From assembly GCF_003334255.1 (NCBI RefSeq), contig NZ_QOWU01000009.1: 64,000 nt of DNA, one strand, 5' to 3'. The notes beneath the pieces were generated by a model that saw nothing but the letters and a program-made list of their open reading frames with translations, was not told the DNA's origin and made no database searches. Of the stretch, positions 20,366 through 20,665 are shown one piece after another. How positions within the stretch are numbered: position 1 is the stretch's first letter; every line of letters begins with the position of its first letter. A program made the position numbers and the translations under genes. This stretch comes from Escherichia coli. Its GTDB lineage: Bacteria > Pseudomonadota > Gammaproteobacteria > Enterobacterales > Enterobacteriaceae.

Positions 20366-20441
20366 GCGGGAATAGCTCAGTTGGTAGAGCACGACCTTGC
20401 CAAGGTCGGGGTCGCGAGTTCGAGTCTCGTTTCCCGCTCCA
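20366..20441 (+). tRNA. glyV: tRNA-Gly (GCC anticodon), copy 1 of 3
   Basis: 76-nt gcgggaatagctcagttggtagagcacgaccttGCCaaggtcggggtcgcgagttcgagtctcgtttcccgctcca; cloverleaf and CCA end. Confidence 0.95.
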
Positions 20442-20477
20442 AAATTTGAAAAGTGCTGCAAAGCACAGACCACCCAA

Positions 20478-20553
20478 GCGGGAATAGCTCAGTTGGTAGA
20501 GCACGACCTTGCCAAGGTCGGGGTCGCGAGTTCGAGTCTCGTTTCCCGCTCCA
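20478..20553 (+). tRNA. glyX: tRNA-Gly (GCC), copy 2 of 3
   Basis: Identical 76-nt sequence, separated from copy 1 by a 36-nt spacer. Confidence 0.95.
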
Positions 20554-20589
20554 AAATTTGAAAAGTGCTGCAAAGCACAGACCACCCAA

Positions 20590-20665
20590 GCGGGAATAGC
20601 TCAGTTGGTAGAGCACGACCTTGCCAAGGTCGGGGTCGCGAGTTCGAGTCTCGTTTCCCGCTCCA
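20590..20665 (+). tRNA. glyY: tRNA-Gly (GCC), copy 3 of 3
   Basis: Identical 76-nt sequence, separated from copy 2 by the same 36-nt spacer. Confidence 0.95.

Follow-up and report, generated by a model that had tools for sequence, protein, structure and literature searches.

The three tRNA-Gly(GCC) genes described here form a K-12-type glyV-glyX-glyY operon of E. coli, an assignment of identity and function that we regard as essentially certain; the perfect identity of the two spacers between these genes is, however, not the normal state of the operon. In the window, i.e. the whole stretch of 64,000 nucleotides that was analysed, both spacers are of one type, here called a, whereas in canonical K-12 a spacer of type a is followed by one of type b. 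As the surroundings are otherwise identical to K-12, the a,a arrangement appears to be either a rare derived state or an assembly error. An origin in the cell, by homologous recombination between the 76-nt tRNA repeats and not in the assembler, has in our judgement an even chance. The useful outcome is a correction, since it was this perfect spacer identity that had drawn attention in an earlier note on the same DNA.

All genes and spacers of the array lie on the plus strand. The genes glyV (20366–20441), glyX (20478–20553) and glyY (20590–20665) are 76 nt long including the encoded CCA end and share one and the same sequence. They were detected by ARAGORN and Rfam, supported for glyV by RefSeq annotation at the orthologous position and for glyX and glyY by a script comparison. 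Each copy scored 69.1 bits against the Rfam family RF00005 (gathering score 29), and ARAGORN placed the anticodon gcc at position 34 in all three. The tRNA ends read 5′ GCGGGAA... and ...TTCCCGC-T-CCA 3′. The identity set of E. coli glycyl-tRNA synthetase comprises U73, G1:C72, C2:G71, G3:C70, C35 and C36; judged by the sequence, all three copies carry this set as well as an encoded 3′ CCA. Spacer 1 (20442–20477) and spacer 2 (20554–20589) are both 36 nt long and both read AAATTTGAAAAGTGCTGCAAAGCACAGACCACCCAA. Tandem Repeats Finder reported one array at 20366–20667 with a period of 112, 2.7 copies, 100% matches, 0% indels and a score of 604. Chance cannot account for a perfect repeat of 190 nt at an offset of 112. 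The description of three identical 76-nt tRNA genes with identical 36-nt spacers in a 112-bp unit, given in the earlier note, was therefore exact in coordinates, lengths and spacer string, as ARAGORN, Tandem Repeats Finder and the script agreed. No further copy of the 76-nt gene or of the 36-nt spacer was found by script outside the array within the window. A fourth gene of this isoacceptor, glyW, is located elsewhere in the genome; it is absent from the window.

The locus was identified by its neighbourhood. A 1.2-kb query around the array matched all 5426 complete E. coli genomes searched, and the RefSeq annotation beneath this match consists of orn, three tRNA-Gly genes, a 17-codon open reading frame and queG. 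In many annotated genomes the array is flanked by orn and queG and has the orientation of orn, within the wider gene order mscM, psd, rsgA, orn, glyVXY, queG, nnr, tsaE, amiB and mutL. The segment 12000–30000 of the window shows 100% identity with E. coli J53-p1-pV-hybrid-1 across 18,001 nt, its only perfect match over 18 kb, while MG1655, C600, the reference J53 and many other K-12 strains match over 18,000 nt with 18 fewer bits. Spacer 2 is the sole difference from K-12 across this 18-kb comparison, and the window is hence K-12-type DNA with one small difference. The canonical K-12 glyVXY operon (tRNA-Gly3) shares with the window the locus, the tRNA, the leader, spacer 1, the terminator region and the 18-kb flanks, but its second spacer is the 35-nt type b instead of the 36-nt type a. 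Correspondingly, the perfect repeat measures about 190 nt in the window and 86–96 nt in the canonical array.

Spacer b of MG1655 and O157:H7 (35 nt) reads AAATTTGAAAGTGCTGTAAGGCACAGACCACCCAA and is preceded in these strains by the same 36-nt spacer a as in the window. Compared with a, it has one A fewer in the A-run, a C to T exchange in the loop and an A to G exchange in the stem, the latter giving a U·G pair; the words specific for b and a are GAAAGTGCTGTAAGGCAC and GAAAAGTGCTGCAAAGCAC, respectively. Spacer 2 of the window differs from K-12 by an extra A in the run 20561–20564, by C20571 (T in K-12) and by A20574 (G in K-12), so that it carries the a state at all three linked positions, which lie within 14 nt. 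The canonical pair of a 36-nt a and a 35-nt b is not present in the window, which sets apart an allele and not the glyVXY gene family. A second spacer of 35 nt is common to K-12, O157:H7, ATCC 25922 and the alleles bearing an ERIC element (see below), and the 36/35-nt pair of ATCC 25922 differs by the indel only. The C/T position of the loop and the A/G position of the stem are polymorphic among E. coli lineages, and this polymorphism is the nearest thing to a point in favour of three separate untemplated mutations (one insertion and two substitutions) as the source of the a-type second spacer, for which nothing specific was found. We give such a series of mutations hardly any weight. The three changes fall within 14 nt in an otherwise K-12-identical 18 kb, each leads to the state of the neighbouring paralogue, and far fewer assumptions are needed for a templated event or an artefact. 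K-12 relatives with only one or two of the three changes were not encountered among the genomes listed.

A search with the exact 300-nt array, using an E-value cut-off passed only by perfect matches, returned 21 of the 5426 complete genomes. With four arrays of four or five copies and one case of assembly junk set aside, about 16 genomes remain in which a three-copy array has a,a spacers. The earlier note had called the array the normal glyVXY operon. This holds for the locus, flanked as it is by orn and queG, but not for the identical spacers, which were found in few E. coli genomes, give way to a,b in MG1655, O157:H7 and most other E. coli and were absent from the 36 other species compared (see below). 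That identical spacers are the normal or ancestral form, the view taken in that note, is compatible with the standard tRNA genes, flanks and spacer 1. It is refuted by the rarity of the exact array, by the a,b state of the K-12 relatives and by the 35-nt second spacers described above; the lack of any identical pair in the other species among the loci listed also speaks against it, and it is in our view extremely improbable.

Variation in copy number and spacer order was surveyed in the 5426 complete genomes with whole-array queries and strict E-value cut-offs that only a single full-length alignment could pass. Exactly one copy was present in 15 genomes, exactly two copies joined by a short spacer in 81 (some with a, others with b), three or more contiguous copies joined by short spacers in 3711, and three copies with a 121-nt insert in spacer 1 in 1607 (29.6%). 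These four mutually exclusive classes cover 5414 of the 5426 genomes. Four or more copies were found in 17 genomes (18 matches, one of them junk), with a maximum of five copies, carrying spacers a,a,a,b, in one genome (UTAK-1). A perfect b,b run was detected in 27 genomes, in five of them inside a,b,b arrays. An independent 76-nt junction query yielded 10,731 junctions in 5409 genomes, with a median of two and a maximum of four. At least 113 genomes (2.1%) hence depart from three copies, losses outnumbering gains by about 6:1, and a homogenised three-copy array occurs in about 0.7% of the genomes. The spacer arrays present among E. coli are a; b; a,a; b,b; a,a,b; a,b,b; a,a,a,b; and a with ERIC followed by b. 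They have the same genes and flanks as the window and differ in the number or order of the spacers, and any of them can arise from another through exchange between the 76-nt repeats. The proneness to copy-number change anticipated in the earlier note, for which a comparison across strains had been suggested, is borne out by the genomes with one, two, and four or five copies. Copy counts taken from BLAST places or from coverage were dropped, the joining of overlapping pieces being strand-dependent and inconsistent.

Within the proposed route of recombination in the cell, the 36-nt spacer 1 would have been copied without change into the place of spacer 2, which is a 35-nt b in K-12. This could have happened by one short gene conversion or by two unequal crossovers via an intermediate with two copies (a) or four copies (a,a,b), and both intermediates exist in other genomes. 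The boldest form of this reading, to which we give a probability a little short of even, is that a conversion within the array or a double unequal crossover did take place, very recently, in a laboratory lineage of K-12 and is seen here before divergence; the spacers would then not be neutral filler, their hairpin would have been kept by compensatory changes in Enterobacteriaceae, and the whole unit would evolve in concert. The reciprocal b,b state is about as common as a,a, and its 27 genomes come from many unrelated submissions. Four-copy arrays recur in apparently related genomes from separate accession series, namely the mouse-derived M8, RSHH22 and SK6988 and also a group of 4.67–4.73 Mb. 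Both observations speak against a purely technical origin of the variants, as does the otherwise clean assembly without any other K-12 difference in 18 kb.

The main competing explanation, to which we assign a probability that likewise stays just below one half, holds that a,a is an artefact of assembly or polishing, so that the strain would truly be a canonical a,b strain with the biology of K-12 glyVXY throughout. A graph-based or hybrid assembler could have traversed the loop of tRNA and spacer a twice and dropped b, or polishing with multi-mapped reads could have overwritten b with a. The sole perfect match of the window is in fact a hybrid assembly of a J53 transconjugant, and the reference J53, MG1655, C600 and all other K-12 genomes listed are a,b. 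The two states differ by 1 nt in length and two substitutions, which noisy long reads may resolve poorly. The deviant arrays also cluster by sequencing study. The AVS series accounts for 7 of the 21 a,a matches and at least 8 of the 81 two-copy genomes, the TUM series for 6 of the 15 one-copy genomes, and one copy each is found in MC1061 and OV2, whose accession numbers are neighbours. Within the AVS series, AVS0226 has two copies, whereas AVS0453 and AVS0753 are a,a despite nearly equal genome size and array position. This clustering indicates that some of the deviant arrays result from assembly collapse, in keeping with the susceptibility to collapse pointed out in the earlier note. It is also a warning that some tRNA copy-number differences in public genomes labelled complete are technical.

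Obvious repeat junk including this array at the record ends of two other complete genomes, XL1-Blue (CP081007) and BL21(DE3) (CP081489), adds to the case for an artefact. The extra arrays in these two were taken out of the counts as unplaced repeat contigs. Both chromosomes are labelled complete and come from neighbouring accession series, and their record ends (NZ_CP081007.1, 4651107–4659367, and NZ_CP081489.1, 4488475–4496865) consist of strings of fragments of tRNA operons, RHS, IS and prophage genes. These strings resemble repeat contigs that were left unplaced and then added to the chromosome. One of them includes a perfect a,a copy of glyVXY, and such strings inflate tRNA counts. A single gene of the glyV type is present in O104:H4 str. 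2011C-3493 (NC_018658.1, 4705840–4706035), and in the K-12 laboratory strains MC1061 (CP195014) and OV2 (CP195020), where other E. coli have three; if this is due to collapse, the annotated tRNA-Gly counts of these three strains are too low by two. For the window itself, the difference of its exact array from canonical K-12 at three bases offers a check on strain identity or assembly quality. If the recent conversion or crossover is real, glyVXY would lend itself, as a small natural model, to measuring how 76-nt repeats convert one another and change in copy number.

The comparison with other species bears on the same question. A pattern scan with one genome per species returned at least 120 loci, and among the loci listed the order orn, three identical tRNA-Gly(GCC) genes and queG is common to Citrobacter, Enterobacter, Kluyvera, Pantoea, Erwinia, Providencia, Photorhabdus, Morganella and others. 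The arrays of Enterobacterales resemble that of the window in the identical 76-nt tRNA, in the three copies found in most of them and in the neighbours orn and queG. Their spacers share a conserved start AAATTTG and, in Enterobacteriaceae, also a hairpin and the end CACCCAA, but vary by genus in sequence and in length (22–50 nt). Among the loci listed, 36 species have the exact tRNA gene in triplicate, separated by two short spacers. Within one array, their spacers showed a mean identity of 0.86 (median 0.91), compared with 0.60 between species, regardless of whether spacers at the same or at different positions were compared (0.597, 0.603 and 0.601). In 24 of the 36 arrays, no other species had a spacer 1 closer to that of the array than the array's own spacer 2. 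Such a pattern is that of concerted evolution, and it argues against the artefact explanation in showing that the same exchange takes place in nature. The recombination proposed for the window would be the process that keeps the spacers of an array alike within each species across Enterobacterales. An identical spacer pair was found in none of the 36 other species among the loci listed, so full identity is short-lived or rare. Homogenisation and changes of copy number by recombination between near-identical repeats are known for tandem or duplicated translation genes such as tyrT-tyrV of E. coli, tufA/tufB of Salmonella and the rRNA operons; these are other genes, and their likeness to glyVXY is one of process only.

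Some arrays found in the scan depart further from the three-gene form. In Aeromonas, five to seven identical tandem tRNA-Gly(GCC) genes adjoin orn (loci L014, L022, L027, L039, L063 and L089). The spacer lengths in this genus alternate, e.g. 36, 35, 36, 35, 25 and 25, which suggests duplication of two-gene blocks. The third spacer of A. caviae (L014) measures 114 nt and holds a decayed tRNA-like copy that is no longer called by ARAGORN. In Pantoea sp. Ap-967 (L124, 6684–7207), tRNA-Glu(UUC) is interleaved with tRNA-Gly(GCC) in the order Glu-Gly-Glu-Gly-Gly. A spacer in a Tolumonas metagenome-assembled genome (L107, 3203–3323) contains a tRNA-Gly pseudogene whose T-arm has suffered an internal deletion.

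In spacer a, an A/U-rich 5′ part AAAUUUGAAAA is followed by a hairpin GUGCU-GCAA-AGCAC (20453–20466 in spacer 1 and 20565–20578 in spacer 2) and then by a 3′ part AGACCACCCAA. The hairpin has five base pairs, a GNRA loop and a predicted energy of −7.2 kcal/mol, and it stands between the A/U-rich single-stranded start of the spacer and the end CACCCAA. The stems differ by genus in Enterobacteriaceae (GUGCU/AGCAC, GUAUC/GAUAC, GGCU/AGCC, GGCC/GGCC and AUGUC/GACAU). An explicit structure was scored on a MAFFT alignment of 34 distinct spacers. At the five stem pairs, 75% of the cells held a standard pair, compared with 24–48% when the partner was slid by one to three columns, a control that somewhat favours the hairpin, given that the structure was taken from the E. 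coli sequence. The aligned sequences are also related to each other. All five pairs change on both sides, in 34 cells in total, and none of 500 shuffles reached the observed covariation score, a score that is lowered and not raised by the third or so of the alignment rows that are out of register. Because of these misregistered rows, RNAalifold found no more than a trivial 3-bp helix, located in the invariant flank. The spacer hairpin may thus be a processing signal beside an RNase E entry site.

A putative sigma-70 promoter was read from the sequence at 20281–20308 on the plus strand. It comprises a −35 hexamer TTGCAG (20281–20286), a 16-nt spacer and a −10 hexamer TATAAT (20303–20308); it is preceded by an A/T-rich tract (20253–20274) and directly followed by a G+C-rich discriminator GCGCCTCCC (20309–20317, plus strand). 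A consensus promoter scan reported no promoter here, because the putative −35 hexamer matches the consensus at only three of six positions, and we infer the assignment from the arrangement of these elements. The published forward primer CCGTAACGACGCAGAAATG of the glyVXY precursor maps to 20316–20334 and the reverse primer to 20678–20699. The published start at 20316 lies 8 nt after the putative −10 hexamer and gives a 5′ leader of about 50 nt (20316–20365, plus strand). On the 3′ side, an imperfect hairpin CCACAGCGACGCGAUGCGUUAUUGCUGG (20688–20715) followed by UUUUUGUUG forms a putative intrinsic terminator (20688–20720, plus strand), proposed from reading and folding. The fold of 20666–20730 has −14.3 kcal/mol with a z-score of −2.7, and a simple terminator scan did not list the structure at 20688–20720.

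In general, RNase P removes the 5′ leader of tRNA precursors, and 3′ exonucleases complete maturation. For glyVXY, a single promoter would give rise to one precursor ending at the hairpin and U-run about 50 nt beyond glyY. RNase E would cut this precursor, presumably in the A/U-rich single-stranded spacer segments that adjoin the small conserved hairpin, RNase P would trim the 5′ ends, and exonucleases would trim back to the encoded CCA. The resulting tRNA-Gly(GCC) reads GGC and GGU. Kime et al. showed that the glyVXY precursor, corresponding to 20316–20699 of the window, is cut efficiently by RNase E in vitro, and that this cleavage proceeds without a 5′ monophosphate, termed direct entry (PMC3985628). 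A glyVXY deletion strain has been made in MG1655, and the glyVXY product constitutes a major part of the tRNA pool (PMC9981150). The operon, its tRNA, its transcription into a single precursor, the processing by RNase E, recombination in tandem repeats and ERIC elements in transcribed spacers are all already known; nothing here is new in kind, and the scientific weight of the array is small.

The 121-nt insert in 1607 of the 5426 E. coli genomes is located between spacer a and glyX and belongs to the ERIC family. ERIC elements are imperfect palindromes of about 120–127 nt in which the ERIC1R and ERIC2 primer sites lie back to back. The insert matches the ERIC primers at 15–19 of 22 positions and is predicted to form a long hairpin of −37.2 kcal/mol (z-score −3.9); it would form part of the tRNA precursor. 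The window carries no copy of it, as judged by blastn of the 121-nt insert. The element occupies spacer 1 of E. coli loci L001 and L002 (6579–6699 in both) and of a second E. coli assembly (L061). The same element, with 84–97% identity, is present in the arrays of that second assembly and of Citrobacter, Silvania, Kluyvera, Superficieibacter and Pluralibacter; it was found in spacer 1 of L061, L097, L084, L103 and L120 and in spacer 2 of L042 and L095. Across genera it has diverged far less than the short spacers, which are about 60% identical. An Rfam match to YrlA across two tRNA genes in L001 (40.3 bits, gathering score 69) was rejected as tRNA-like similarity.

A genomic island integrated at glyY was also considered, as BLAST similarity seemed to end at the tRNA 3′ end in about 1600 genomes. 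This reading was ruled out by two such genomes that share the downstream DNA and genes of the window; the break was caused by the ERIC insert in spacer 1 together with the joining of BLAST pieces. Integrase-bearing foreign DNA with a duplicated tRNA 3′ end was not found directly downstream of the tRNA.

Downstream of the array, six DnaA boxes form a cluster at 20684–21590 (20684+, 20751+, 20913+, 20925−, 21296− and 21582−), two of which are perfect (TTATCCACA and TTATTCACA). The cluster begins 19 nt past glyY, extends into the 3′ part of queG and is the datA locus, which promotes the hydrolysis of DnaA-ATP. The count of DnaA boxes in the whole window is at chance level (46 found, 44 expected), and only this local cluster is meaningful. 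The 5′ arm of the putative glyVXY terminator hairpin shares nucleotides with the first DnaA box, so that transcripts reading through from the tRNA operon would run into datA. According to a remark in PMC5742627, datA may be inhibited when it is transcribed through, and as the array directly abuts datA, read-through or rearrangement could touch datA function. The RefSeq-annotated 17-codon open reading frame at 20899–20952 on the plus strand (WP_010723271.1, MRFYFYSQAVDESGVTR), a hypothetical gene, falls within the datA core, where the 3′ end of queG, encoded on the opposite strand, overlaps it; one DnaA box is located within it and another across its end. Elsewhere in the window, Rfam matches at gathering level identified a guanidine-II (mini-ykkC) riboswitch aptamer at 4817–4863 on the plus strand (50.4 bits) and an IS102 RNA at 63427–63630 on the minus strand (246.5 bits).
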